Of a stretch of DNA of 64,000 nucleotides, positions 4,652-60,477 are shown piece after piece. Position 1 is the stretch's first letter. Every line of letters begins with the position of its first letter. Position numbers and translations under genes: made by a program. Origin of the DNA: Ostreococcus lucimarinus (Eukaryota); the NCBI GenBank assembly GCA_000092065.1, contig CP000589.1, one strand, 5' to 3'. Under the pieces are notes generated by a model. It saw only the letters and a program-made list of their open reading frames with translations, was not told the origin of the DNA and did no database searches.

Positions 4652-7600
4652 CTAGTGCGTTGAATCGACGATTTGCGACCAAAGCGCAAGCGTCACGTCG
4701 TCGCGTAATTCTAATAATGTATCCGTCGCTACTTTCGAATACTTACCGTTCAAATTTCTGAGCAGACACGACACCAGTGTTTCCATCATGCCGGATAACT
4801 CGCCTCGCAGGAGATGCGACAAAGTATATGGAAGTGCGAGAATGCACTGCTCTATGGATGTCATCGACAGGAGCGCCGACGTCGGTCCCCACGCTGCGGC
4901 AAGTATAGCGATGCATGGGATCGCATCGACATCGGTGAGATTGGCGGCTTCGTGTATCATTTGTGCTCGAAGTGAGTTTGATGATGTGGTGAGATGACCT
5001 ACCATCGCTCTCAAAGTGACCGTCCTCGTCGCCTTTGGCCAAGTCGCCAGTGATGTGAGCGTTTCAGACGCAACTTGTCCAGCATTGTATAAGCGAGCGC
5101 AGACGATGGGTTTGACGTCGAGCGCGAGCTTCTTCACGACTTGTTCTCGTAATACCGATGAAGTAAATTGACTAACGCACGTGGAGACTGCATCAAGCGT
5201 TCGTGTATCCGTCAAACTTAAACGAGACACGAGTTCGCAAACTGCCGCTGTAGCTGTTTCGCTTTCAGAGACATCAATCAAACCATTCCAAAGCGACTCC
5301 ACGCAACCGTCGGACGCGTGCGGTGAAAACGCCATTTGAGTGAATCGTTTTATCGCACTAGCACCGGTCTCAGACCGTAAAGCGCACGCGTATGGAGCGC
5401 TCAACATCGCCAAGCGCTGTGTCTCCGGCGCCAGATTGAAGAAGTCTGCATCAGAGAGTGCTACGAGCAATTCCAAGACGTCTCGACCTATTGAAGCTTC
5501 CGGGTGCGCACGACACATTCGAAGGCAAGCACACTGAAGCGCATTCTTTTCAACTTTATCCGCATCGCCACTGGAAGTCGCGACTCGCCACCAACGATGC
5601 AAGGCATTTGACCAGCCAGCATTCGGTAAGCGAGCGAGCTCTCGCAGTACATCCAACGCCAACGTCGCGCCGTTCAGTTGCTCTCGGGACGGACAACTCA
5701 CGACATTATCCAAAAGTGCATGCATAATAAATCCAATGATGGTGTCTTTTGGAACAGACGACTTCGAATCAGTTGATCTCGGGCCAATCGTAACGGCAAT
5801 TTGTGCCGCTCTGTCTGACACCCCAGCGAGCGTCCAAATGGTTAAATCTCGCAACGCTTTCGAAACAATATCGCCTGGCGCGTACGCGATACTTTCTAGC
5901 GTCTTCAGAACACGTTTTGCCTCGATCTTTGATTTATCACCGCCCCAGAGCAACGGCGCTGAAAATACCGCACCTTCATCGAATGTTCCGGCGACGCTCA
6001 CATCGTGGCCGTCCCAAGCGCTGCCCAACACCCCAGACAGGGACAGGACACCAATCGAACGGTCGAACGATGTCGCCATGTCGTCTCGGACCGTTGACGT
6101 GACTCTCGCAATAATTTCCTGAACGGTTTGTATCGGAATCGCGCAGCCATGGTCGAGCGTTACACCAAGAATGATGCCGGCGACGGCGCGAATAGCGGGC
6201 TGTTCCGAATCATGCGTCGTCCTTAGCGCCTTCAACGCGAGGACCTCACTCTCGGTATTGTGCCTATGATTGAGTAATGACTTCACGGCAACTGGTAGAG
6301 CAATACTTCCAGGAAATCTTCCGCACGACGTTGCGCCGATGAGCCAGTTTATGATCGCTAAGGTGTTTGTCATGGCTTTGTCATCTTCGAAGACATCCAA
6401 AGCGCACGCTGCCCTCGACAATCCAGTGTAAACTCCACAGACTGCATCGGACAAGTCCCCTTTCGGAGGTGAAATAATGTCATTCGCTGGCTGAACTTTC
6501 AAGACATCTATAAACGGTTCACCGAGCGCGACCAAGGTAGCGCCCAGGAAGCTGTAAATTCTCCTGACGAGATCCAATCGCCATGACGAAGACGAGCCGC
6601 CGGGCAAAACGTTCGACGACAACTCGCGGCACATTAAACCAAGAGCTTCCGCGGTAACACCCATCGTCAATGCGCCATCGATACGGCAATCGCTGATTTG
6701 CTTCATCATAATTTCAGCAACCTTGTTCGGGCGCTGTGCGTCACCTCTATCCTCGAGAGTACCCGCAGCGAGACCGAGGGCGACGTACAACCCACGCTCG
6801 GCGCCCACGATGGATGACTTTTCCTCCAACAGTGAGAGCAATAAATCCACCAATGCTGCACCGAGTCCACCGTTTCCAACCAAAACTGGTGTCGCGAGAA
6901 GTAAAGCTATATTTTGTAATTCATCAGGCATGGAAACATCTTGGAGTGCTTCCATGGCCGTGGCGTTAATGCTCGCTCGAACTTCGGCGTACAGCTCATC
7001 CAATCCGTTCTCGGCGGTTCTCGCCGAAACTTCGGCGTCGAACCAGCGACGAGCAAAACGAGTCCACGCGCGCGTGACGAGATTGACGTGCCATGAACCA
7101 CTCCAAAACACTTGCCTTATCGCGCGCTTAAACTCAGTTCGATACGCCTCCGCACGACTTCGCCTCTGGGAATTCTCATCGACTGAACGCGTCGCTTCCG
7201 ATTTCCCCTTGTGCGGGCGGAACAAAAGTAAGCGAGCGCACGAACACAGCTGACTGTCAAGCAACTTTTTCGGAAGTGTTTGCGTTACTCGATATATGAG
7301 CGGATCCGACGGAGGTGGATGCGAGACTTGTTGAGACTCTCGAGCCACTAAGGCAGTGCGAGATAACAAGCTCGCCTCGTGTTTCGTCATCGTCCGAAGC
7401 ATTCGCGTGGCGCCGACGAACGATTCTTCTCCAAAACTTTCAGACAGCGCGCTCGCCGCAATTTCTGCCGGAGTCGGCGAATCATTTTCAATTATGAACT
7501 CTGGATCGTATTCACTCAACGAATTCCAGGCTTCGTGACGAACACGAGCGTCCTTGGACGTTTTGATTGCATTCCATACTGTGTCAATGAGCGTCGCCGT

Positions 7601-49959: not shown

Positions 49960-50922
49960 ATGCCCTTCACCTCCCCGCCCCTCCAGCGCGCCTTCGCCGC
50001 CGTCGTGTACGTCAGCGAGGGTCGTCGCACCGCCGTCCTCGACGTCATCGAGCGCGTCGCGCGCGAGGCGACCGCGCCTCGTCGTCCCGTCGCGCTGGTG
50101 AACGTCTTCAGGGACGCCGAGTACAACAGGACTGGGTTCACCCTCGCCGGCCGCGACGTCGATGACGTCCGACGAGCCGCGCTCGACGTCGCCCAGGTGT
50201 CTCTGCGCGAGGTGGACATGCGCGCGCACGACGCCACGCACCCGAGAGTGGGCGTGGTGGACCACGTGAGTTGTCACGCGTTGGCGGGCGAACGCGCCGG
50301 CGCGGCGAAACTCGCGAAATCCATCGGTGAAGGCTTGGGAACGCTGGGCGTGCCGGTAAAATTATACGGAGACGCGGCGAGCGATGGGATCGGGCTGGAT
50401 GAGATTCGGCGACGGAGTGGGTACTTTAGCGGCGCCGCGGGCGGGCGGTGGACGGGGGAGTTCGCCGTCGAGCGCGGGTTCGCGTTCGATTACGGCCCGA
50501 GCGACGTGCCCGAGCGCGAGGGGTTCGGCATGGTGGGCGCGGTGCCTTGGGTGTGTAACTATAACGTCCCTCTGGCGTTCACGTTCGCGGATGAGGGTTT
50601 GGATGCGGAGACGAGGATGACGCGCGCGATGGCGTTTGGACGCGCCGTGGCCAAGCGCGTATCGGCGCGCGGCGGCGGTCTACCCTCGGTGCAATCCATG
50701 GCGTTGCCACACGGCGGAAAAGTCGAGGTGGCGTGTAATTTATTAGACGTCGACGCGTCGTCCACGGCGGACGTGCAGCGCGCGACGGCGGCGGCGGTGG
50801 CGGAGACGGACGCGCTCAAAATTCTAGGCGCCGGCGCGTCGGCGATGGTGGAAGACGGTTACGTCACCAATCAAACCCCAGAGAGCATCATCCGCGCCAT
50901 CGATGCGATCGACGCGCGTTAG
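49960..50922 (+). CDS. formiminotransferase-domain protein (glutamate formimidoyltransferase-like)
   Basis: AVVYVSEGRRTAVLDVIE...LVNVFRDAEYNRTGFTLAG...LREVDMRAHDATHPRVGVVDHVSCHAL follows the FTCD N-terminal pattern (ECVPNFSEGR...D..YNRT..T..G...+DM..H.G.HPR.GA.DV.PF.P). Confidence 0.55.
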   Translation: MPFTSPPLQRAFAAVVYVSEGRRTAVLDVIERVAREATAPRRPVALVNVFRDAEYNRTGFTLAGRDVDDVRRAALDVAQVSLREVDMRAHDATHPRVGVVDHVSCHALAGERAGAAKLAKSIGEGLGTLGVPVKLYGDAASDGIGLDEIRRRSGYFSGAAGGRWTGEFAVERGFAFDYGPSDVPEREGFGMVGAVPWVCNYNVPLAFTFADEGLDAETRMTRAMAFGRAVAKRVSARGGGLPSVQSMALPHGGKVEVACNLLDVDASSTADVQRATAAAVAETDALKILGAGASAMVEDGYVTNQTPESIIRAIDAIDAR

Positions 50923-51040
50923 TTCGCCCCGCGTTCGCTTTAATGCATTCATCTCATTCGCGCGACGCTTCGGCGCGTTCCATCGGCGCGCGCGTCTCGG
51001 ACGCCTCGACTCGTCCTCACACCTCGACGCGCCGGTCGAC

Positions 51041-52039
51041 ATGCCCGACGCCGAATTGGACGATCGCGACTGCCTCACGCGCTTCGCCGCGCACCACCGC
51101 GACGTGTTCAACAAGGAGATTTTGTCCAAGATGAAGACGCCGCGTCGCGCGTGCCCGTGCGGGCGCGCGAACGAAGTGCCCAGTTGCAGAATTCACTACG
51201 CCGTTTTGCGGTGCGTGAACCGCACGTTCAGGAAGTTGCTGCCGCCGTACGAGGAGGTGATGGCGAAGAAGAACGAACTGCTCGTGTGGGATCGCGTCAC
51301 GGGTAGACCAGGGGTTTCGAAAAGCGAATTACAACGTTACGTCTGCATGCACGCCGCGCCGAAATTGATGGAAAAGACGATTCGCGCGCGCGACGAGGCG
51401 GGCGACAGGCTGTGGTGGGCGGTGAAAGAAACACTCGATGATATGGCCGCAGGTCGAGATAACCCTAAGTATGAGTGCGAGGTGTGCGGGAAGTTCGTAT
51501 GCGTCTTCTGTGGCGCGGCTTGTGCGTGTCCAGAATGCAACGACGTGCGAACGTGCCGAGAATGTGCCGAGACGTATGAAAACTTTACGTTCTGCAAGTC
51601 TTGCAAAATCGCGTACTGCAACGATGGCGATGAGTACGACGATGAAAGTAATTGTGACAAAGACATAGTATACTGCTCAGAATGCGATAGATTCCGTTGC
51701 TCGGACGATTGTCAGAACGACCTGATGTTCTGCGAAATATGTTCCGACGCGGACCCATTTTGCTTGGACTGCACATGGCGCCATCATGTCAATTGTGACG
51801 GGTGCGGTGGACATCTCATGTGTGAAGGACACAACGAGGTCGATGAATATCTAACATACGTGGGCGACGACGACGATCAACCAGAAGGGTACTGGTATCT
51901 GTGCGATAGTTGTCTGAATCCACGCCCGTGGAAGCCGCCGATCGAGAAACCTCCACGAAAGGCGCCGATCAAGAAACCGAGAAGCCCAAGCGTTTCGCCT
52001 CGCATGTCGTTCTCAAGCTGCACGGACGACATCGACTGA
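51041..52039 (+). CDS. Cys-rich (probably zinc-binding) hypothetical protein
   Basis: Dense CxxC spacing: CEVCGKFVCVFCGAACACPECNDVRTCRECAE...FCKSCKIAYC...YCSECDRFRCSDDCQ...FCEICSDADPFCLDCTWRHHVNCDGCGGH. Basic/Pro-rich tail. ATG at 51041 preferred over the ORF start at 50903. Confidence 0.35.
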   Translation: MPDAELDDRDCLTRFAAHHRDVFNKEILSKMKTPRRACPCGRANEVPSCRIHYAVLRCVNRTFRKLLPPYEEVMAKKNELLVWDRVTGRPGVSKSELQRYVCMHAAPKLMEKTIRARDEAGDRLWWAVKETLDDMAAGRDNPKYECEVCGKFVCVFCGAACACPECNDVRTCRECAETYENFTFCKSCKIAYCNDGDEYDDESNCDKDIVYCSECDRFRCSDDCQNDLMFCEICSDADPFCLDCTWRHHVNCDGCGGHLMCEGHNEVDEYLTYVGDDDDQPEGYWYLCDSCLNPRPWKPPIEKPPRKAPIKKPRSPSVSPRMSFSSCTDDID

Positions 52040-52089
52040 AGGTGAATATGGAACTATCATCACGATTCAACGACGTAGCATTACAATTT

Positions 52090-52824
52090 TCATTGAAAGC
52101 ATTCGACTAACTCGCAACCGAGGATTTGCCACCCGAGCGACTCTCGAATCCTACGCAACCGCTTACTCTGCTCGCCCAAATCGCTCACGGGCGTCATGAA
52201 AGGATAGACATACTTCACATCCATCGCGAACGAGCGATACAACACCAACGGCCCATTGCCTTCGTCGCCACTCCAGTTTCTATCGCTCACCGGCTCGTTC
52301 TTCACCCAAAATTCGACGACGTCGTCGCCGAGTTTGCCCGGCACGGAAAATCCAACGAACGAGCCCTCCGCCCGATCCTCTCGCATAATTAATTTAGAGT
52401 TCTCCACCGATTCCAACGTCGCGTCCACGAGCGCGTTCGCGGCGTCCTTCGCGTCGCGAAACGTATTCGGCGCCGTCCAAGGCGACGCGTACTTGTCGCT
52501 CTCGCGCGACGACGTGCTCACGCAGTTGTGTTCGCGCGGACAGCCACGCACGCGCCCCGGAGGCTGTAAACCGAGCTCAAGCTCGCCCTCGGGCTCCATG
52601 ATCGTGCGCGCGTTCGTTTGCGCGCGCGCTGTGGGCGCGAACGCCGTCGCGACGAGCGCAGCGCTGGAAAACAAGATGGATCTTCTGTCGCGACGTGCGA
52701 GCGTCGATGGCGTCGACGCCGACGATGTGACCGGCGATGTGACGGACGACGAAGCGCGCGTCGAGTTTTGTATCGCGCGTAGTGCGCGGTCGCATCCGGG
52801 GACGGTCGCGAGTTGGGCGCGCAT
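52090..52824 (-). CDS. DUF1499-family protein with twin-arginine (Tat) signal; probably thylakoid-lumen targeted
   Basis: ARRDRRSILFSSAALVATAFAPTARAQ (RR motif, hydrophobic core, AxA cleavage site). Then GCPREHNCVSTSS...SPW...FVGFSVPGKLGDDVVEFWV...LVLYRSFAMDVKYVYPF resembles DUF1499. Confidence 0.5.
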   Translation of the reverse strand: MRAQLATVPGCDRALRAIQNSTRASSSVTSPVTSSASTPSTLARRDRRSILFSSAALVATAFAPTARAQTNARTIMEPEGELELGLQPPGRVRGCPREHNCVSTSSRESDKYASPWTAPNTFRDAKDAANALVDATLESVENSKLIMREDRAEGSFVGFSVPGKLGDDVVEFWVKNEPVSDRNWSGDEGNGPLVLYRSFAMDVKYVYPFMTPVSDLGEQSKRLRRIRESLGWQILGCELVECFQ

Positions 52825-52893
52825 GGCGAGTGTCGCTGTGAGGGGTGGCGGCGAATTTGTTTCTTACACTGTACAGTACACTGTTTCATCGCT

Positions 52894-55800
52894 TCATTCG
52901 TTGTCGCGGGGATCCACGAGCTCGTACGATGCGTCCGCCTCTTCGTTGAGCATGCGATCGATTTCATCGAGACGCTCGGCGAGCGTTTCGTCTCCATCTT
53001 CGTCGCCCATCGGCGCCGACGGTTTTCCATCGAAATCGCATCCAGTATACGAGTCATTCAACCGGCAGTAATCGATGAGACTCCTCCAGTGCACGTCGTG
53101 GCTCAAGATGTGAGGATTACCCACGATGATCAAGAGTGACATTGCGCGCGTCACGGCAACGTTGAATCGCTTTGGATTCGCCATGAAACCGAGGCGATGG
53201 CGAGCGTCAAACTTCAAATGGGCAGTGTCGCTGCGAACGGTTGATAAGATGACTACGCTAAACTCTTGTCCTTGCAAGAGTTCAGTCGAACCCACGGTGA
53301 CTCCAGAAATCTTTTTCGCTTCGAGGTGTTTCATCATCTTCAGTTTTTGCTTGTGATACGGTGTACAGATGGCGATGTCTTTGGCTGTCAAACCCGTGTT
53401 CTTTCGGTCCAAAATTTTCGTGATCCACGAGCTCACTCGAAGTATCTCGTCGGGATTAAACCAAGATGGCGAATTCGCCTCTCGGAGTTCTTCGCCCATG
53501 ACACCGTCGAAAACGACTGGAAACGATGGATTCGGAAGCTCTTCCCATCCCTTGAAAATGTTCGTCCGCATGGGATCGGCGCAACATTCCAGCCTGTCAA
53601 AGTAGAATAACTTCGACGGAATTTCGATGATGCACGCGTGCGAGCGATAATTTTTCGTGAGCATGCACACTTTACTTGGCTCAAACGTACCGTCCGCGCG
53701 AACGCTATACGGAGTCTCAGTGTACGGCGCCGGAGGTAAGCACAGACGCTCGAGCATACTGACTTCCAAAGCTCTCGATTCCTTGGCTTGCACCAGCGGT
53801 CCCAGCTGTCGGGCGTCGCCGGCCAGAACCAGACGCCCTTTTTTTGGCTCTAATACGCTGACGATGGCGGTGAGAAGTTCGGGCTCCGATGCATGACCTG
53901 CTTCATCGATGATGACATTTTCAAAGCGACGCTCCGGCGATAAAATGAACACTTTCCTCGCTTTCCCTTTTCCGTACTCACCAGAGTCTCGAAACGTCCG
54001 CGTGAGTCTCTGCGCCGTAATCGGTGTCATGGCAACCACTCGAGCTCGCATGAATCTCTCAACAGTCGGCGGACAAAAAACGTTTGCAGTACTATCGTAG
54101 TTTGAGACGTCTAAGAGCTTCGATGGCACCTGATCGGGCATTCGAGAGAAATTGTAGACGCGATACGCTTCGCTCTTTGGAACGCCACCGTGCTCGATGA
54201 CGCGTGAGATGAACAAGTCACACGCCGCGTTACTTGGAGCCATCAACAAGACTCTTCCGCCAGTTTTATACATCTGCGCCGCTATCTCCACGACAGTAGT
54301 CGTCTTACCAGTACCAGGAGGTCCAAAAATGATGAATGGAGATTGTGAACGCGGCGCCATCGCGTTCGCAACTGCGAGCTTTTGTTCCTCGTTTAAGCGC
54401 CGATTCAACATTTTCAGATCTGATCTGCCAGTCGCGTCTACGTCGAGATCGTCGCCAAACTTTGGAAGCAAAAATGACTCATACGACGAAGATTTCAGAG
54501 AGTCTTTAATCGCGCCATGCATGAGTTCTATCGCGGTGCGCGACACTTCAAACGACACGTCAGCCTTGACCCCATTGATGTATGCTTTCGTGAAACCAGG
54601 ATGGAATCGGCACACGATGTGCTCAGCTTCCACGAATTCAACTTTCCCTCGAAATGAGCTTTTAGCCGTGGACAAATCGACGATGATCGAGTCGCCACGA
54701 AGCACCGATGGACGAGCTTCAGCGAGGCCTGGGACGAAAAGTCTATACATGGCTTTGGAATTGGTCTGCGAGAGCGCGACGTTGTGCATATCGTACAATC
54801 TCACGTTTTTGGTCGCCTGCACTTCTTCCATCATGAGCAGCTGACGAAAGAACTGAGCGTAATTCGTCTTCGAGAGATACTTTTGTCCGGTTTCTAGCAT
54901 TTCAGTAACAGAAGATGCCTGTGGTTCCTCGCCGTCGAGCGCTTTCCGAATGTCAGCCATGGGAACGGAAAGCGGAGCCGGCCAGAAGAACTTTGTCTTC
55001 GCGTTTAAAACCTCTTTCGAAGGGCCTGGATCGACGACTTTCTTCGACCCCTTCACCAAACTCGAATTTTTCTGCTGTTTCGGATACGCGAACGCGCTCG
55101 TCGGCCCGAGCGCGATTCGTTCCGCGCTCTCCTGCGCGCTTTCCCTCGCTCGAAGACGCAGCACGAGCACCGAGAGCGTAATCTCGCCCGACTCGACGTC
55201 GTCTTGATACGTTCGATACGAGAAGACGAGTGAAACGTCGTGCACCCCCGCCTTCAAATCCTTCGCCCAATCATCTCTCAAACACACGGCGTTCTCCACC
55301 TCCAGCATTCCTCCCTCCTTCACCTCTCCCTCGAACGTTTTCAGCGTCGGCTCCTCCAACACGCGATCGCCCAAATCGTCTCGGGCGAGCCCGAACGCGC
55401 CGAACAAAACCGTCACCTTCTCCCCCGCATCGATCGGCAATTTCAGCACCACCGACGCGCTTTTCAAATCCGACGCCGACGAGATCTTTCGCGGCACCAG
55501 CGTCTCCTTCGGCGTCGCCTCCGCGCCCGCCTCCGCGCTTCGTCGAAACGTCGCCGCTCGATGTTTCGCGCCGCGCTCGTGCTCCTCTCGTCCGCACGCC
55601 GGCACGTCCACGTCGCACACGTCGCATCGATACGCCCCTAACAGCGCGTCTCGCGCGTCTCTCGCGTTCGAGCGGTGCGCCCTCGTGCGCTCGTGCTCGA
55701 ACCGCGCGCGCGCGGGCATCGACGCATCGCACGCGACGCATCGCCAGGTCAACGAGTCGCGCGTCCGCAGCTTGGCGCGATGCCGCGCGCCGCGCTCGTG

Positions 55801-55938
55801 CGTCGGCATCAAGCGCGCGGGAACGTCGCAATCGCACACTTCGCATCGCGTCGGCGCGCGCGCGCCGTCGACGGGCATGACGCGCGCGCGCGGCGCGATG
55901 TGACGAGTCTCGGAGATCGACGCGACGAGGGGTGCCAT
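52894..55938 (-). CDS. SF1 RNA helicase of the MOV10/SDE3 (Armitage) type with three N-terminal C2H2-like zinc fingers
   Basis: FIIFGPPGTGKTTTVVEIAAQ (motif I), IIDEAGHASEPE (II), VLAGDARQLGP (III), YRSHACIIEIPSKLFY, ICTPYHKQ, TVGSTELLQGQEFSVVILSTVRS, FNVAVTRAMSLLIIVGNPHIL (VI). N-terminal CEVCDCDV..HERGARHRAKL, WRCVACDA..HERTRAHRSN, YRCDVCDVDV..HERGAKHRAA. The ORF's first codon is GTG; ATG at 55938 (MAPLVAS) used. Confidence 0.75.
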   Translation of the reverse strand: MAPLVASISETRHIAPRARVMPVDGARAPTRCEVCDCDVPARLMPTHERGARHRAKLRTRDSLTWRCVACDASMPARARFEHERTRAHRSNARDARDALLGAYRCDVCDVDVPACGREEHERGAKHRAATFRRSAEAGAEATPKETLVPRKISSASDLKSASVVLKLPIDAGEKVTVLFGAFGLARDDLGDRVLEEPTLKTFEGEVKEGGMLEVENAVCLRDDWAKDLKAGVHDVSLVFSYRTYQDDVESGEITLSVLVLRLRARESAQESAERIALGPTSAFAYPKQQKNSSLVKGSKKVVDPGPSKEVLNAKTKFFWPAPLSVPMADIRKALDGEEPQASSVTEMLETGQKYLSKTNYAQFFRQLLMMEEVQATKNVRLYDMHNVALSQTNSKAMYRLFVPGLAEARPSVLRGDSIIVDLSTAKSSFRGKVEFVEAEHIVCRFHPGFTKAYINGVKADVSFEVSRTAIELMHGAIKDSLKSSSYESFLLPKFGDDLDVDATGRSDLKMLNRRLNEEQKLAVANAMAPRSQSPFIIFGPPGTGKTTTVVEIAAQMYKTGGRVLLMAPSNAACDLFISRVIEHGGVPKSEAYRVYNFSRMPDQVPSKLLDVSNYDSTANVFCPPTVERFMRARVVAMTPITAQRLTRTFRDSGEYGKGKARKVFILSPERRFENVIIDEAGHASEPELLTAIVSVLEPKKGRLVLAGDARQLGPLVQAKESRALEVSMLERLCLPPAPYTETPYSVRADGTFEPSKVCMLTKNYRSHACIIEIPSKLFYFDRLECCADPMRTNIFKGWEELPNPSFPVVFDGVMGEELREANSPSWFNPDEILRVSSWITKILDRKNTGLTAKDIAICTPYHKQKLKMMKHLEAKKISGVTVGSTELLQGQEFSVVILSTVRSDTAHLKFDARHRLGFMANPKRFNVAVTRAMSLLIIVGNPHILSHDVHWRSLIDYCRLNDSYTGCDFDGKPSAPMGDEDGDETLAERLDEIDRMLNEEADASYELVDPRDNE

Positions 55939-56036
55939 GTTTTTTTGACGCGACGGGACTGGACGCGTCGACGCGACGAGGGGTGCCGTGGTTTTTCGAC
56001 GACGCGACGGGACTGGACGCGCGCGTCGAGACGAGC
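55922..56036. repeat. tandem duplication (two units of about 57 bp) spanning the predicted helicase start codon
   Basis: cgcgacgaggggtgccATGtttttttgacgcgacgggactggacg followed by cgcgacgaggggtgccGTGgtttttcgacgacgcgacgggactggacg. Confidence 0.7.
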
Positions 56037-56056
56037 GCGGGAGAGAAGAGAAAATT

Positions 56057-56176
56057 GCGTCGATCACACGAAGGAAGCGCGCGCGCGCCGGGTGCTCGAG
56101 ACGCGAGCGAAGCGACGCGCGCTCAACCGAGGGCGGTTAAACCGCTGGTGCCGAGCGTCTCGAGCTTTTCGAACGC
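56057..56176. repeat. dispersed duplicate, copy A (31 nt plus 62 nt with a 27-bp insertion at 56088..56114), of the 3' end of the peroxidase gene
   Basis: gcgtcgatcacacgaaggaagcgcgcgcgcg and acgcgcgctcaaccgagggcggttaaaccgctggtgccgagcgtctcgagcttttcgaacgc are identical to 59371..59463. Here they lie in the intergenic region between the 884-aa gene's stop and the helicase start. Confidence 0.8.
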
Positions 56177-56249
56177 TTTTCGAACGATGGTAGATTTCCC
56201 GGTACGAGCCAGACCCTTGACGTAAAACACGACGTCCCAACCGTCATGA

Positions 56250-58904
56250 TTAAGAAAACGCGAGTAGATTTTCAACGGTCACACGGCGCGTCTTGACAAT
56301 CGCCAACAACTCAACTGAAGCGATGGACACCAAAAGGAAGAAAAACGCGGCGTTACCACCCGCTTGAGACAAAACTTGAAGCGGAGGTAGCTTGTACTTC
56401 CGTGTACACGAGTATGGGAAATTTTCTTTAGTCCAGGCACACATTCGATCGCGACCGATTTCATCAAAAATTGTGCGGAACGTGTTCAAGACGAGCGCGT
56501 CATTTCGATCCATCACTGCCGTATAGCTCACCGCGATGCCGCCCGCTTTATATTCATCTGTTGTGAGTATCAAGGAGCCATGTACTGTTCCGCTGATGTG
56601 GTTGGTAAAATTGGTTTGCTGATTTTGAAAAAAGGTGTCGAAAGTAGCGTTCACCGTGCCCATCATATTTGCGTAGTACTTGTATGAAGGACCAAATCTG
56701 CCCCACGGACGGAGGTAAGCCGATGGCTGCCGCCCATAATCCGCGTCACTATAGCTCAATATCCCTTGGCCAGGTCCAAATGAAGGCGTGGACTGCTCAA
56801 GCTCGCTTAAACCCGAGTTCGTCAGCGATGGTTCTTCGATTTTGGCTAAACATTCATCGTATGTCCAATTCTTGCCATACCAGATAGCGTCCTTCAATGG
56901 ACGACACGTGAAACCTTCCTTTTCGAGGACATTTTCTACCACCGTTTCCGTAAACTCCTGAGTCGCGTAAAACTGCAGGAGCAACGCAAATACAATCAAA
57001 GAGGCTGCCCCGAGAACAAAGCACACTAAAAGTGTGCGTATAGGTGACATGACGAGGTCCAGATCGGTCACTCGGAACCACTTGTCCTCCATCGGTAAAC
57101 GTGCCTTCCAGCCCAGAGGATTGCTCGCGGGGAGGCGCTTGATTATGATGGCCACTATCCACATGAGGCTTGCGGCGATGAACTGAGCGTTACCATATGA
57201 GAGAGAGAGGCGCGTGAGTGTATCGGGCGGGCCTGACTTTTTGCACTCGTACGGCGAGTTTTCCTTCGTGAAAAGGCACACCTCGTCGCCTGCGACATCC
57301 ATCATGGCTTTCCACACCTCGACTGCATCCGCCTTGAGTGCGTCTGTCCATGAGTTGGAAGGTGCATTGATTAGAATACGAGTCGACTGGGGTTTTCCTC
57401 CAACGAGAAACGAAGCCGGATCTTCCCAGTGATCGAGATCGGTCGTCGCGCTGTATTGAGTCAGCGTAGCGTTTGGGCGTTCTTTGCCCCAAAACGCTTG
57501 CGATGAAACGCCTTCTTTGGATGCATTAAACGGAACATATTTCGCTTTGATTGGGACCGGATTCGGCATGTTCAATGGATCGCCCTGCCAGGATTCGAAA
57601 TTAATATTATCCACCGTGATGTCCTGTAAAGCAGCCTTGCAGTCGTCGAACGTATATCGCACACCGTAACCGAGGTTGTCTGTCGTCAACGGCGTGCAGT
57701 TGTATCCAGGCATTGCCCAAGAACCTGTGATTTGAATATCGGTGATGTACTGCGAAGTCGACGAAAAGTACTGGTAAAACCATGCAAACGTTCCTACACC
57801 GACGGCACAGATGGTAAGCGAAAAGAAACCAACGACCAGCGTGTTCGACACGAATTCGAGCGGCTCCTCGTCGTAAAATTCGGGAGGAAAAGATAACTTT
57901 TCAATCCAGGTTTTCTCATTGGTAGCCTTTGGAGCTTTGCGGAAAAAGCCTATGAAGGTGGGTAAAGTAGCAAGGAACACGGTGATCACGAGCCCAGCAT
58001 TATTATTCGACAGACCAATCATTTCTAAAGCAGTCATTCTTTTCGACTTCAAACACTTGTACGGCAAGTTGTGCTTGGTGAATTCGCACACGTCGCCTCC
58101 ATTGACGTATTCAATCGTCTTGCTGAACAACTGCAAGAAATGAGCCGCGCTGGTGTTAAAAGTCTCGCAATCGCCGACGATTCCATTGGTGCTGCCACCT
58201 CCGGAACGCCTGATTTGGCCCGCGTTGCACGTCGCGCCAGACGGGTTTGGGTACTGCCTGCAGTCGCCGTTGTTTACAACTTGATTGATGTATGTTTCAA
58301 TTTCTGGCGTACGTGATTCCGGAAGCTTTGGCCAAATACCTCGATGGGCTTGAACACTACCGAACGGATTGTAATACACCGAATTCTTCACCGAGCAGTT
58401 ATAGGGTATAGTGCCCCCGTTACTATAGTCAGTACGTGTCAGGTAACCTCCAGCGGCGATAGCCTCTGCATTGGCGATATCAAAGCCAATTGCACTCTCT
58501 GTCAATGGCACTATCTTCGTTAAACACTCTTCGTACGTATAGTTTAACCCGTAAAATTCATCCGGGCTCAACGGCGCGCAGTCGTAGCCAGCGATCGCCG
58601 TGGAGTCGCTGATGATCGTATCCGTCACCCAGCGCGCTTCGTCCGCGTAGTAAAACAACGACCCGATGAATGCCAAGGTAGCGAGCGTGTGCATCGTCAC
58701 CGCCCCGCCGTAGGCCATCCACACTGGTCCTTTGAATTCGAGATACCGCTCGCGCGCCCAATAAATTTCAGGTACTGGAAGTCTTCGTATGAATCGCTCG
58801 ACGGAGCCCCTCGCCTTGCGCGCGCGCTGCTTGATCGACGAGGGCGCCGGGGCCGATGCCGACGCGTGCGTCATGATGAACGACGGGCTTCCGCGCGCGG
58901 GCAA
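56250..58904 (-). CDS. multi-pass membrane protein built from three internal repeats (about 250 aa ectodomain plus TM each); unknown family
   Basis: Three repeats each contain G(Y/F)xCxPL...Y(T/N)(Y/F)(E/D)(E/D)C(L/K)(A/T)...C(E/L/A)(F/W)TK(H/E)N(L/S/F)PY(K/E/S)C and end in a hydrophobic helix. Examples: AGYDCAPLSPDEFYGLNYTYEECLTKI / PGYNCTPLTTDNLGYGVRYTFDDCKAAL / EGFTCRPLKDAIWYGKNWTYDECLAKI. Confidence 0.5.
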   Translation of the reverse strand: MPARGSPSFIMTHASASAPAPSSIKQRARKARGSVERFIRRLPVPEIYWARERYLEFKGPVWMAYGGAVTMHTLATLAFIGSLFYYADEARWVTDTIISDSTAIAGYDCAPLSPDEFYGLNYTYEECLTKIVPLTESAIGFDIANAEAIAAGGYLTRTDYSNGGTIPYNCSVKNSVYYNPFGSVQAHRGIWPKLPESRTPEIETYINQVVNNGDCRQYPNPSGATCNAGQIRRSGGGSTNGIVGDCETFNTSAAHFLQLFSKTIEYVNGGDVCEFTKHNLPYKCLKSKRMTALEMIGLSNNNAGLVITVFLATLPTFIGFFRKAPKATNEKTWIEKLSFPPEFYDEEPLEFVSNTLVVGFFSLTICAVGVGTFAWFYQYFSSTSQYITDIQITGSWAMPGYNCTPLTTDNLGYGVRYTFDDCKAALQDITVDNINFESWQGDPLNMPNPVPIKAKYVPFNASKEGVSSQAFWGKERPNATLTQYSATTDLDHWEDPASFLVGGKPQSTRILINAPSNSWTDALKADAVEVWKAMMDVAGDEVCLFTKENSPYECKKSGPPDTLTRLSLSYGNAQFIAASLMWIVAIIIKRLPASNPLGWKARLPMEDKWFRVTDLDLVMSPIRTLLVCFVLGAASLIVFALLLQFYATQEFTETVVENVLEKEGFTCRPLKDAIWYGKNWTYDECLAKIEEPSLTNSGLSELEQSTPSFGPGQGILSYSDADYGRQPSAYLRPWGRFGPSYKYYANMMGTVNATFDTFFQNQQTNFTNHISGTVHGSLILTTDEYKAGGIAVSYTAVMDRNDALVLNTFRTIFDEIGRDRMCAWTKENFPYSCTRKYKLPPLQVLSQAGGNAAFFFLLVSIASVELLAIVKTRRVTVENLLAFS

Positions 58905-59370
58905 TTTTGCGATGACCGTGCTCTCCGATCTGACGTGTCGACGTAATTACCCTAACGACTCCTCACTCGGTCCCCCCTAATTGAATGCGAATGGAGAGGA
59001 AGTGACTAACATATAATGTGGTTTTTAGAGGTATCATATCAGTATCGAGCCCTGGCTCAAGGGCACGCTGGACTGAGTTACCGTGCGCAATGATACATTA
59101 ATTGCATTACTAGGGATTTCGAAAATAATGTATGAGGGTAAAATAGTGAATTTAATTAACCTAGAGACGTCTTGTCGCGCCGGCGCGCGCCACTTCGCGC
59201 CGCGCGCGCGTCCGGGCGGCGCGGAGTCAACCGATGTTTCCGTGTATCGTGATATCCGACCGTTTAAGTTTGAATTCCACGCGTGGGTGTTGACGGAAGA
59301 CGACCGTTGGAGCTCGATGGGCACGTTAACTTTTGGGCCAGATTCTGTCGCGACGGGAGAAGAGAAGAGT

Positions 59371-59463
59371 GCGTCGATCACACGAAGGAAGCGCGCGCGC
59401 GACGCGCGCTCAACCGAGGGCGGTTAAACCGCTGGTGCCGAGCGTCTCGAGCTTTTCGAACGC
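59371..59463. repeat. dispersed duplicate, copy B (original context: last 17 codons plus 3' UTR of the peroxidase gene)
   Basis: Identical to copy A minus the 27-bp insertion. Encodes ...AAFEKLETLGTSGLTALG-stop on the minus strand, contiguous with the APX-like ORF. Confidence 0.8.
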
Positions 59464-60477
59464 GGCGGCGAAGTCTTCGAAGAAAACCTTCTGACTCTTG
59501 GCGTAGACGTCGACGTACTTCTTGAAGTCGGCGTCTTCGATGAGCGCGATGTCGCTCGGAAGCATCATCAAGTTGCCGCTCGGGTCTTTGTATTGGAACT
59601 TTTTGGCGTCCGGATTCGGCTCCCACTTCAAGCCTTTGAGGAGGACGAAGTAGGAGTTGTTGAACAGCAACGGCGTCCCGCTCCACGGTCCGACGTAACC
59701 GGACGCGTCGGCGTGACAACGACCGAGGGCGTGGGCGCCGCTCAACGCGACGATTTCTCGATCGTCGAAACCCATGCGGTAGAAGACGTCGCGCAAGCCT
59801 TGCCTCGTCTTCGGTCCAGGGCCGTCGCCCTTGTCGGCGTCGGGCAAGCGCCCGTCGGGGGTGACCGCCTCGGGATCCATCTCGTCGACGCGACCGTACG
59901 AAAACTTCAACTTCGGCCCGCCCATCTCTTCGATCGCCACGACGCCGACGAACGCGATGAGATCGGCCCACGATACGTCCGGGTGCCGCTTCTTGATCGG
60001 CTCGAGCTTCGCGATCGCCTTATCCAGTCCCGCGTTCCCGCCGTGCGCGAGTTCCTCTTTAAACCGAATCGTCCCGCCGCCGCTCCCACCAGTCTTGCCC
60101 ATCCGGTCGTACGTCCCGGACGAGTGCCACGCGAGTCGCACGAGCGTCGGCCCGAAGTCCGCGTCGGCGCGCGTCAGCTCGACCGCGTCCCGTCGAACCG
60201 ACGCGAAGCGTTCCTCCGCCGTCGCCGCGCGCGCGGGCGCGACGTCGAACGCCGCGAAGAGCGCCGGCGCGAGCGCGATCGACGCGAGCGCGCGTCGTCG
60301 CGGCGTCGATGAATCGGATGGCGATTCGTCCGAAACGACGTTTCGGACGACCGTCGCGCGCGGACGCGGACGCGTCGCCGCGCGCGTCGCGCGAGCGCGC
60401 GTCGAAGCCGACCCGATCGCCGCGCCGAGCTTCGCGCGCGCCGTCGTCGTCGTCGTCGTCGTCGTCGTCGCGCGCAT
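59410..60477 (-). CDS. class I haem peroxidase (ascorbate / cytochrome-c peroxidase type) with targeting presequence
   Basis: LVRLAWHSSGTY (distal His), GGSGGGTIRF, SWADLIAFVGVVAIEEMGGP, LSGAHALGRCH (proximal His). Presequence MRATTTTTTTTT...ALASIALAPALFAAFDVAPARA. Start at 60477; upstream ORF sequence is low-complexity. Confidence 0.8.
   Translation of the reverse strand: MRATTTTTTTTTARAKLGAAIGSASTRARATRAATRPRPRATVVRNVVSDESPSDSSTPRRRALASIALAPALFAAFDVAPARAATAEERFASVRRDAVELTRADADFGPTLVRLAWHSSGTYDRMGKTGGSGGGTIRFKEELAHGGNAGLDKAIAKLEPIKKRHPDVSWADLIAFVGVVAIEEMGGPKLKFSYGRVDEMDPEAVTPDGRLPDADKGDGPGPKTRQGLRDVFYRMGFDDREIVALSGAHALGRCHADASGYVGPWSGTPLLFNNSYFVLLKGLKWEPNPDAKKFQYKDPSGNLMMLPSDIALIEDADFKKYVDVYAKSQKVFFEDFAAAFEKLETLGTSGLTALG

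Follow-up and report, generated by a model that had tools for sequence, protein, structure and literature searches.

Long Direct Repeats of a Peroxidase Gene End in Ostreococcus: The Probable Target-Site Duplication of a Relocated Gene Cassette

1. Introduction

In the 64-kb stretch of Ostreococcus lucimarinus DNA that was analyzed here (the window), the end of a peroxidase gene and the region downstream of it are present twice, and the two copies, which have the same orientation, enclose the whole of an 884-aa membrane-protein gene, an arrangement that marks them as an insertion footprint. We consider it highly probable that these repeats are a target-site duplication arising from the repair-mediated relocation of a gene cassette, and that the insertion is an old polymorphism which still segregates in wild populations. 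The locus carries the traits expected of an insertion: there is an allele in which the single target is uninterrupted, direct repeats lie on both sides of the insert, and filler DNA and a short repeat mark its junctions. The inserted DNA is, moreover, a copy of sequence found elsewhere, namely a 98.9%-identical cassette located beyond the neighboring helicase gene in contigs L022, L023, and L026.

The locus provides a clean natural case of gene movement in a very compact eukaryotic genome, with both the ancestral and the derived alleles present in the ocean. The insertion scar itself is ordinary and well documented; it belongs to a known kind of event, will not surprise the specialist, and overturns nothing. 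It does, however, offer a natural counterpart to laboratory insertion scars, and its anatomy is that of foreign DNA in laboratory transformants of Ostreococcus, which suggests, by analogy, that the same end-joining-type repair may shape gene order in the wild. The three haplotypes described below could also provide a simple marker by which strains of lucimarinus-group populations are told apart in metagenomes.

2. Comparison Sequences

The comparison sequences are marine metagenome contigs from the same Ostreococcus (lucimarinus-group) species, and they represent a population consensus that may be mosaic. Querying with the exact sequence of the peroxidase encoded in the window gave no hit; the loci were instead gathered through a search for homologues and then through the entries for nearly identical proteins. 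Many marine metagenome contigs encode a nearly identical peroxidase, a 73%-identical relative falls into a cluster with Ostreococcus tauri XP_003081147, and one member of the 90% cluster to which the window's protein belongs is of NCBI origin, which places the window in the lucimarinus group of Ostreococcus.

3. The Duplicated Segment and Its Two Copies

The peroxidase, the 884-aa ORF, and the helicase are all encoded on the minus strand, and reading along the genes one meets in turn the peroxidase, copy B, a stretch of 3,177 nt with the 884-aa gene, copy A, and the helicase, so that the two copies, in direct orientation, bracket positions 56177–59353 (Table 1). An automatic repeat search returned an exact 65-nt core (56112–56176 = 59399–59463), which is prolonged by a 55-nt pair at 91% identity, whereas the limits of the full copies, 56038–56176 and 59354–59463, were set by base-by-base comparison. 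The sequence agrees with the initial annotation in that 56057–56176 equals 59371–59463 save for 27 nt (56088–56114, ccgggtgctcgagacgcgagcgaagcg) found only in the 56-kb copy, and in that a GA-rich stretch beyond the identical part, reaching to the limits at 56038 and 59354, is also common to both. The content of the segment is likewise as first described: on the minus strand it encodes AFEKLETLGTSGLTALG-stop of the peroxidase and then continues for 85 nt past the stop, and copy A sits between the 884-aa gene and the helicase, 73 nt past the stop of the former (56250) and 96 nt before the ATG of the latter (55941).

Table 1. Features of the insertion locus in the window (haplotypes H1 and H2 are defined in section 4)
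Feature	Coordinates	Strand	Remarks
MOV10/UPF1-like SF1 helicase	52894..55941	−	PF13087, PF13086, PF21634
Tandem duplication, 54/51 nt	55917..56021	−	Helicase start codon and first 8 codons; adjoins copy A
Copy A of duplicated target	56038..56176	−	139 nt; last 17 codons of peroxidase, stop, and 85 nt downstream
Junction filler, cassette/copy A	56177..56185	−	9–10 nt repeating adjoining target sequence
Gene cassette, ~3.1 kb	56186..59282	−	Common to H1 and H2
884-aa ORF	58904..56250	−	First ATG at 58874
H1-only stretch, copy B/cassette junction	59283..59353	−	71 nt
Copy B of duplicated target	59354..59463	−	110 nt; functional peroxidase 3′ end, stop 59410–59412, downstream part shortened
Class I heme peroxidase (APX/CCP-like)	59410..60477	−	PF00141, E 2.6e-44

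The pair is a real, local duplication and not a chance resemblance. With up to 3 mismatches allowed, the core occurs twice in the 64-kb window as against 0 occurrences in 100 shuffles, and the self-comparison that had been proposed as a check returns just these two copies, as the top self-BLAST match of the whole window, the remaining matches being confined to GC-rich low-complexity sequence. What had been overlooked at first is that the 884-aa gene lies between the copies and that these are in direct orientation. The two small plus-strand ORFs with which the duplication had been associated do exist in the ORF list, but they are mere antisense by-products of it.

Over ~110 aligned nt, copies A and B are 2 substitutions apart, and each has its own derived changes relative to the single copy seen in alleles that lack the insert (section 4). 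Copy A, which is continuous with the helicase upstream region, has kept the ancestral length, including the 27 nt at 56088–56114, and carries one substitution, at 56055, so that it matches the single copy of empty alleles at 138/139 positions (99.3% to L022). Copy B has lost 27 nt (between 59401 and 59402) and, in a separate deletion, 2 nt, and has acquired a substitution at 59367; the loss of the 27 nt by slippage would be unremarkable, since alternating GC runs lie on either side of them.

4. Three Haplotypes in Wild Populations

Three arrangements of the same genes occur among the metagenome contigs. The first, H1, has the order peroxidase–B–884–A–helicase–DUF1499 and is found in the window and in 14 contigs from different samples and assemblers (H1 contigs: L001–L008, L019–L021, L032, and L036). 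The junction at copy A is identical in all 14 filled contigs, and that at copy B in 11 of the 12 that are readable, the exception being L021, in which the distal part differs; the latter count leaves out L020, which begins inside the cassette, and L004, which could not be read. This uniformity of both junctions points to a single insertion event.

In the second arrangement, H3, represented by 5 contigs (L009, L033, L034, L035, and L037), the order is peroxidase–helicase–DUF1499, with one 139-nt copy leading straight from the peroxidase stop to the helicase upstream region. Four of these empty-site contigs (L033, L034, L035, and L037) are up to 123 kb long and encode a 353-aa peroxidase identical to that on the filled contigs L032 and L036. 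Since the same peroxidase occurs on filled and on empty contigs, the insertion is a presence/absence polymorphism within one species.

The third arrangement, H2, has the order peroxidase–helicase–884 and is represented by 3 contigs (L022, L023, and L026). L022, a contig of 14.8 kb, spans the entire arrangement, in which the segment is present once and the cassette lies past the helicase; L023 and L026 start within the helicase and so confirm only the helicase-to-cassette junction, the single copy being directly seen in L022. H2 departs from H1 and H3 26 nt past the helicase stop, where a 119-nt spacer is followed by the cassette. No source for this spacer was found in the window or in any fetched locus, and the cassette at the H2 site is flanked neither by the 139-nt segment nor by any obvious duplication.

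5. Polarity and Age of the Insertion

A diagnostic site distinguishes the three states of the segment: the single-copy alleles (L009, L022, L033, L034, L035, and L037) read GCACTTTTCTC in 6 of 6 cases, full A copies read GCAATTTTCTC in 13 of 13, with the A copy of L020 likewise, and typical B copies read GCACTCTTCTC in 12 of 12. One substitution leads from the single copy to A, and one substitution and two deletions lead from it to B. The single copy is ancestral because its state is intermediate between those of A and B and because none of the six alleles is an A × B recombinant. The 27 nt are present in all single-copy alleles, which makes their absence from B a deletion and not an insertion in A; the "27-bp insertion in the 56-kb copy" that had been described at first thus has its polarity reversed, and the designation of one copy as native does not apply, both A and B being descended from one ancestral segment. 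Assembler jumps across the repeat were considered as a source of the single-copy alleles and rejected: a B/A join that bears the 27 nt would need the A-type base, which none of the six shows.

Gene conversion between paralogous segments, which had been suggested as an origin of the duplication, finds no support either, there being in the insert-less alleles no pre-existing second sequence that could have been its recipient. The fixed differences between A and B are homogenized in no filled allele in which both copies can be read.

Outside the species, the O. tauri peroxidase is directly followed by a convergent FTCD_N gene, the 884-aa gene is absent from its vicinity, and distant homologues of the 884-aa protein (38% identity) lie in an unrelated neighborhood; it follows from the gene order in O. 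tauri and from these homologues that the 884-aa gene is not an old neighbor of the peroxidase. O. tauri is an imperfect outgroup, as the helicase is also absent from this position, and the spot downstream of the peroxidase appears to have changed repeatedly within the genus. A more distant peroxidase relative, L010, has no synteny in common with the window.

Sequence divergence indicates that the insertion is old relative to present diversity, and H1 is geographically widespread. Among H1 cassettes the diversity is 0.30%, those of H1 and H2 are 1.07% apart with 20 fixed differences, and the helicase of filled and empty alleles has diverged by 0.52%; the divergence of the cassettes therefore exceeds that of the helicases, so that present H2 is a relative of the donor and not the immediate donor. 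The two age estimates, from the 2 substitutions in ~110 nt between A and B and from the 1.07% between the H1 and H2 cassettes, agree with each other. Filled alleles and H2 carry the same SNPs at the helicase 5′ end, which fits a related origin, and recombination is evident in the flanking SNP patterns.

6. The Cassette and Its Junctions

The cassette, as delimited by the segment that H1 and H2 have in common (GCACAGAATTCAAAC... to ...GGGAAATCTACCATC, window 59282 down to 56186), consists of the 884-aa ORF, preceded by ~410 nt of AT-rich sequence and followed by 63 nt past its stop, and its H1 and H2 versions, 98.9% identical, lie on opposite sides of the helicase gene.

The two junctions differ in structure. 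For the 71-nt stretch between copy B and the cassette, no source was found in the window or in the 37 fetched loci, other H1 alleles aside, and it may be either filler DNA or DNA that natively flanked the cassette in a donor not seen here. At the junction of the cassette with copy A, the 11-nt unit cttttcgaacg occurs twice, at 56165–56175 and 56176–56186, and from its sequence the 9–10-nt filler looks like a templated or microhomology-type junction; it is missing from H2, where the cassette terminates in ...CTACCATC and the sequence beyond differs.

A search of the cassette for mobile-element features gave negative results throughout. Its ends carry neither terminal inverted repeats nor long terminal repeats (alignment of the two ends scores at best 6–7 over 13–22 nt, which is chance level), Pfam and PHROG reveal no transposase, integrase, or reverse transcriptase in the cassette, the region contains no tRNA and nothing that matches Rfam at E ≤ 1, and no relative of the cargo was found among viral contigs (IMG/VR). 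A transposable element was rejected on these grounds, namely the lack of terminal repeats and of an enzyme gene, and also on account of the 139-nt length of the duplication and its absence at the H2 site. A viral origin of the cargo was rejected because it has neither an IMG/VR relative nor a PHROG match, and a structured RNA or tRNA target, as used by integrative elements, because there is no Rfam match and no tRNA.

The 884-aa protein has no Pfam or PHROG match. An exhaustive search of 1.84 billion proteins yielded 105 representatives of its family, with 1–9 modules and lengths of up to 2226 aa, none of which carries an annotation; the membrane-protein family is uncharacterized. Internal repeats of the 884-aa protein are apparent by eye and from the multi-stretch matches of the family, though BLASTP self-comparison found none. 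About six hydrophobic segments and three cysteine-containing modules can be discerned in the protein.

7. Proposed Course of the Insertion and Its Consequences

In the sequence of events that we propose, the ancestral chromosome would have carried the peroxidase, 184 nt, and the helicase, with the 139-nt segment present once. In one lineage, the chromosome would have been broken at the 3′ end of the peroxidase, with the breaks in the two strands offset by ~139 nt, or else a template switch would have re-copied these 139 nt. Repair of the break would then have joined in a copy of the ~3.1-kb cassette, comprising the 884-aa gene and its own upstream region, which in other strains is found elsewhere, ~3 kb away and beyond the helicase; the movement would thus have been from an H2-like location to the H1 position. 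The 139 nt lying between the two strand breaks (or re-copied) would have been placed on both sides of the insert, and the repair would have left as its residue the 71 nt of filler at one junction and the 9–10-nt copy of neighboring sequence at the other. Copy B would later have lost 27 and 2 nt, and each copy would have gained one substitution.

Such an insertion would leave the peroxidase unchanged, since the duplication starts 54 nt inside its coding sequence and regenerates its 3′ end; the gene is intact because the duplicated stretch holds the last 17 codons, the stop, and the downstream region. The helicase, for its part, has its full native upstream region, copy A included, preserved, and the keeping of this whole 184-nt region is probably what allowed so compact a genome to tolerate the insertion. 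A duplication of this length may thus have allowed insertion into a 184-nt spacer, and even into the end of a coding sequence, without harm to either neighbor.

For the 884-aa gene, the consequence is that a former peroxidase downstream region now lies 73 nt past its stop, and to judge from this placement, its transcripts could possibly end in the duplicated peroxidase 3′ region. Read-through of the 884-aa protein into copy A was rejected, given that the frame of the peroxidase tail differs from that of the 884-aa ORF; for the earlier suggestion that a neighboring transcript had captured a 3′ exon nothing was found, the copy being out of frame with the ORF.

8. Comparison with Known Systems

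The closest parallel comes from the same genus, in the transformed O. tauri line T3, in which directly repeated MetAP2 sequence of 518 bp lies on either side of the insert, one junction containing 83 bp of unknown origin and the other a duplication of 62 bp, an outcome that was credited to an NHEJ-like pathway (PMC8002553). The direct target duplication (518 bp there, 139 bp here), the junction DNA of unknown origin (83 bp and 71 nt, respectively), and the short junction duplication (62 bp and 9–10 nt) all have their counterparts at our locus. The differences are that in T3 a foreign laboratory plasmid disrupts its target, whereas here an endogenous cassette resides in wild populations next to an intact target, and that the insertion described here is old enough for worldwide polymorphism.

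Two kinds of repair process come into consideration as sources of the duplication. Fill-in of staggered breaks or nicks, by which the sequence between offset breaks is duplicated, is the simplest source of a 139-nt repeat on both sides of an insert. Tandem duplications have reportedly been obtained from paired nicks in plants by Schiml et al. in 2016. Fill-in of complementary overhangs by Pol alpha-primase/CST followed by NHEJ is a demonstrated route to duplications (PMC8355091). The fill-in experiments differ from the present case in that they mostly gave adjacent tandem duplications of under 100 bp, whereas here 3.2 kb separates the copies. MMBIR/FoSTeS, on the other hand, resembles the present case in that DNA lying close by in cis, at a distance of about 3 kb, is copied to a new place, with re-copying of the flank and short templated repeats at the junctions; here the short repeat is present at one junction only. 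The sequence by itself would fit MMBIR/FoSTeS and fill-in with capture alike, and the two cannot be told apart by it.

Likenesses to mobile elements are more limited. As with the target-site duplications of transposable elements, direct target repeats flank the insert and empty-site alleles exist, but transposon duplications are short and of fixed length (about 2–20 bp), unlike the 139 nt observed here, which are accompanied by filler and by neither terminal repeats nor an enzyme gene. As in the attL/attR arrangement of bacterial integrative elements, the direct repeats hold the 3′ end of the target gene, which stays functional; these elements nevertheless differ in having an integrase and a defined attachment core, both lacking here, and there is no duplication at the other location of the cassette, so that the likeness would be one of analogy only.

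9. Alternative Explanations

We have weighed several other readings of the locus against repair-mediated insertion. A tandem duplication with subsequent deletion, which we regard as unlikely, would start from an H2-like chromosome (peroxidase–T–helicase–cassette), on which a ~6.5-kb block from the peroxidase 3′ end to the cassette end would be duplicated; the first helicase copy would then be deleted, with 71 nt left behind, and the distal cassette would be lost through recombination with H3. The junction between cassette end and T start is exactly what duplication of T–helicase–cassette would produce, the helicase 5′ SNP signature is common to filled alleles and H2, and small tandem duplications adjoin the site (55917–56021). 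Three events are needed, however, instead of one, the two-helicase intermediate is seen in 0 of about 30 contigs, and the 71-nt filler calls for a separate explanation.

One may also picture the cassette as a repeatedly mobilized "wandering gene" with defined ends, which would move both inside and among Ostreococcus genomes, whose long target duplications protect the neighbors and whose spread is perhaps favored by virus-driven selection on surface proteins. At least three contexts of the cassette or gene are seen in Ostreococcus, with 92–100% identity and one of them beside virus-like genes, yet we give this broader idea little credence.

It is very doubtful that the filled state is ancestral and that homologous recombination between the direct repeats removed the cassette to give the single copies. 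Ostreococcus is recombination-proficient, recombination between direct repeats of ~100 nt is plausible, and filled and empty alleles coexist in near-identical backgrounds; repair pathways have been discussed (PMC8002553). A recombinant that keeps the 27 nt must, however, have crossed over upstream of them and would hence carry the A-type GCAATTTT, whereas 6 of 6 single-copy alleles carry GCACTTTT, which does not occur in A or, in combination with the 27 nt, in B. Nor does this reading explain where the repeats came from or account for H2, which is single-copy despite having the cassette elsewhere.

Equally hard to sustain is the view that the cassette is truly mobile, or travels as a circular intermediate, and enters gene 3′ ends by recombination while bringing along a copy of the end of its target, in the manner of bacterial integrative elements; the repeats would then be attachment-site-like. 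The same cassette with the same ends does occur at two positions (H1 and H2), a 92–93% copy lies in a third context (L024 and L025, between RsfS-like and ABCG genes), and virus-like ORFs are found beside the cassette in some H2 contigs. Against this stand the absence from the cassette of any Pfam or PHROG match to a transposase, integrase, or reverse transcriptase, the lack of terminal inverted or long terminal repeats, of a tRNA, of an Rfam element, and of a relative in viral contigs, the H2 cassette that is unflanked by the 139-nt segment or an obvious duplication, and junction filler that is typical of end joining.

Finally, an assembly artefact, a chance match, or a functional, dispersed 3′-end motif (the first and last having been raised in the initial annotation, together with a dispersed repeat family) has a negligible probability, for nothing more than the general risk attached to repeats speaks for any of them, while 14 metagenome contigs assembled independently, from different samples and by different assemblers, show the same arrangement, zero matches are expected by chance, and the segment, which includes 54 nt of coding sequence, is present just twice in the 64-kb window and once or twice in each related locus, where it is confined to these positions, and is absent, as far as the search reached, from unrelated loci of the genus.

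10. Further Observations on the Locus and Its Surroundings

A number of features close to the insertion deserve mention in their own right. The helicase start region contains the 54/51-nt tandem duplication listed in Table 1, whose upstream unit has ACG where the downstream unit has the ATG at 55941; this duplication is separate from the insertion and older than it, since empty alleles have it. At 59278–59283, exactly on the boundary between filler and cassette, the window reads GCGTGG in gene orientation and L001, L022, and L023 read GCACAG. In L021 (VMHT01110763.1, positions 1080–1130), the distal ~32 nt of copy B are swapped for ~35 nt of unrelated GC-rich sequence, a change that would represent a second rearrangement at the copy B junction.

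The surroundings of the cassette and its gene vary outside H1. In H2, the DNA past the cassette is not found in the window, and L022 and L023 part ~55 nt after it (L022 8700–9060). Positions 5945–11854 of L023 hold virus-like ORFs, including one for a 321-aa Peptidase_S74/tail-fibre-like protein (Pfam 1.8e-13, PHROG 4.8e-15), and L023 also gives a weak GIY-YIG match (E 0.008); no close relative of the virus-like ORF was found in IMG/VR. The third context, in L024, L025, L028, L029, and L031, consists of a 92–93% copy of the 884-aa gene between RsfS-like and ABCG transporter genes, with flanks that are unrelated from the stop codon onward; this copy may belong to a sister lineage or mark the original locus of the 884-aa gene, and in L025 the ORF is split into parts of 563 and 350 aa. 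Only ~75 nt upstream of the 884-aa start codon are common to H1, H2, and the sequences L026 2419–2909 and L027 1–130, and on this comparison the upstream region appears to have been rearranged more than once.

In O. tauri (L011–L013), comparison with window positions 50900–59400 shows that the block comprising the 884-aa, helicase, DUF1499, and 378-aa genes is missing, and an ABC transporter lies upstream instead. Within the window, the 5′ part of the helicase ORF (55573–55848) contains three repeats of ~105–114 nt, whose translation gives a series of zinc-finger-like CxxC...H...H motifs that precede the MOV10-type core.
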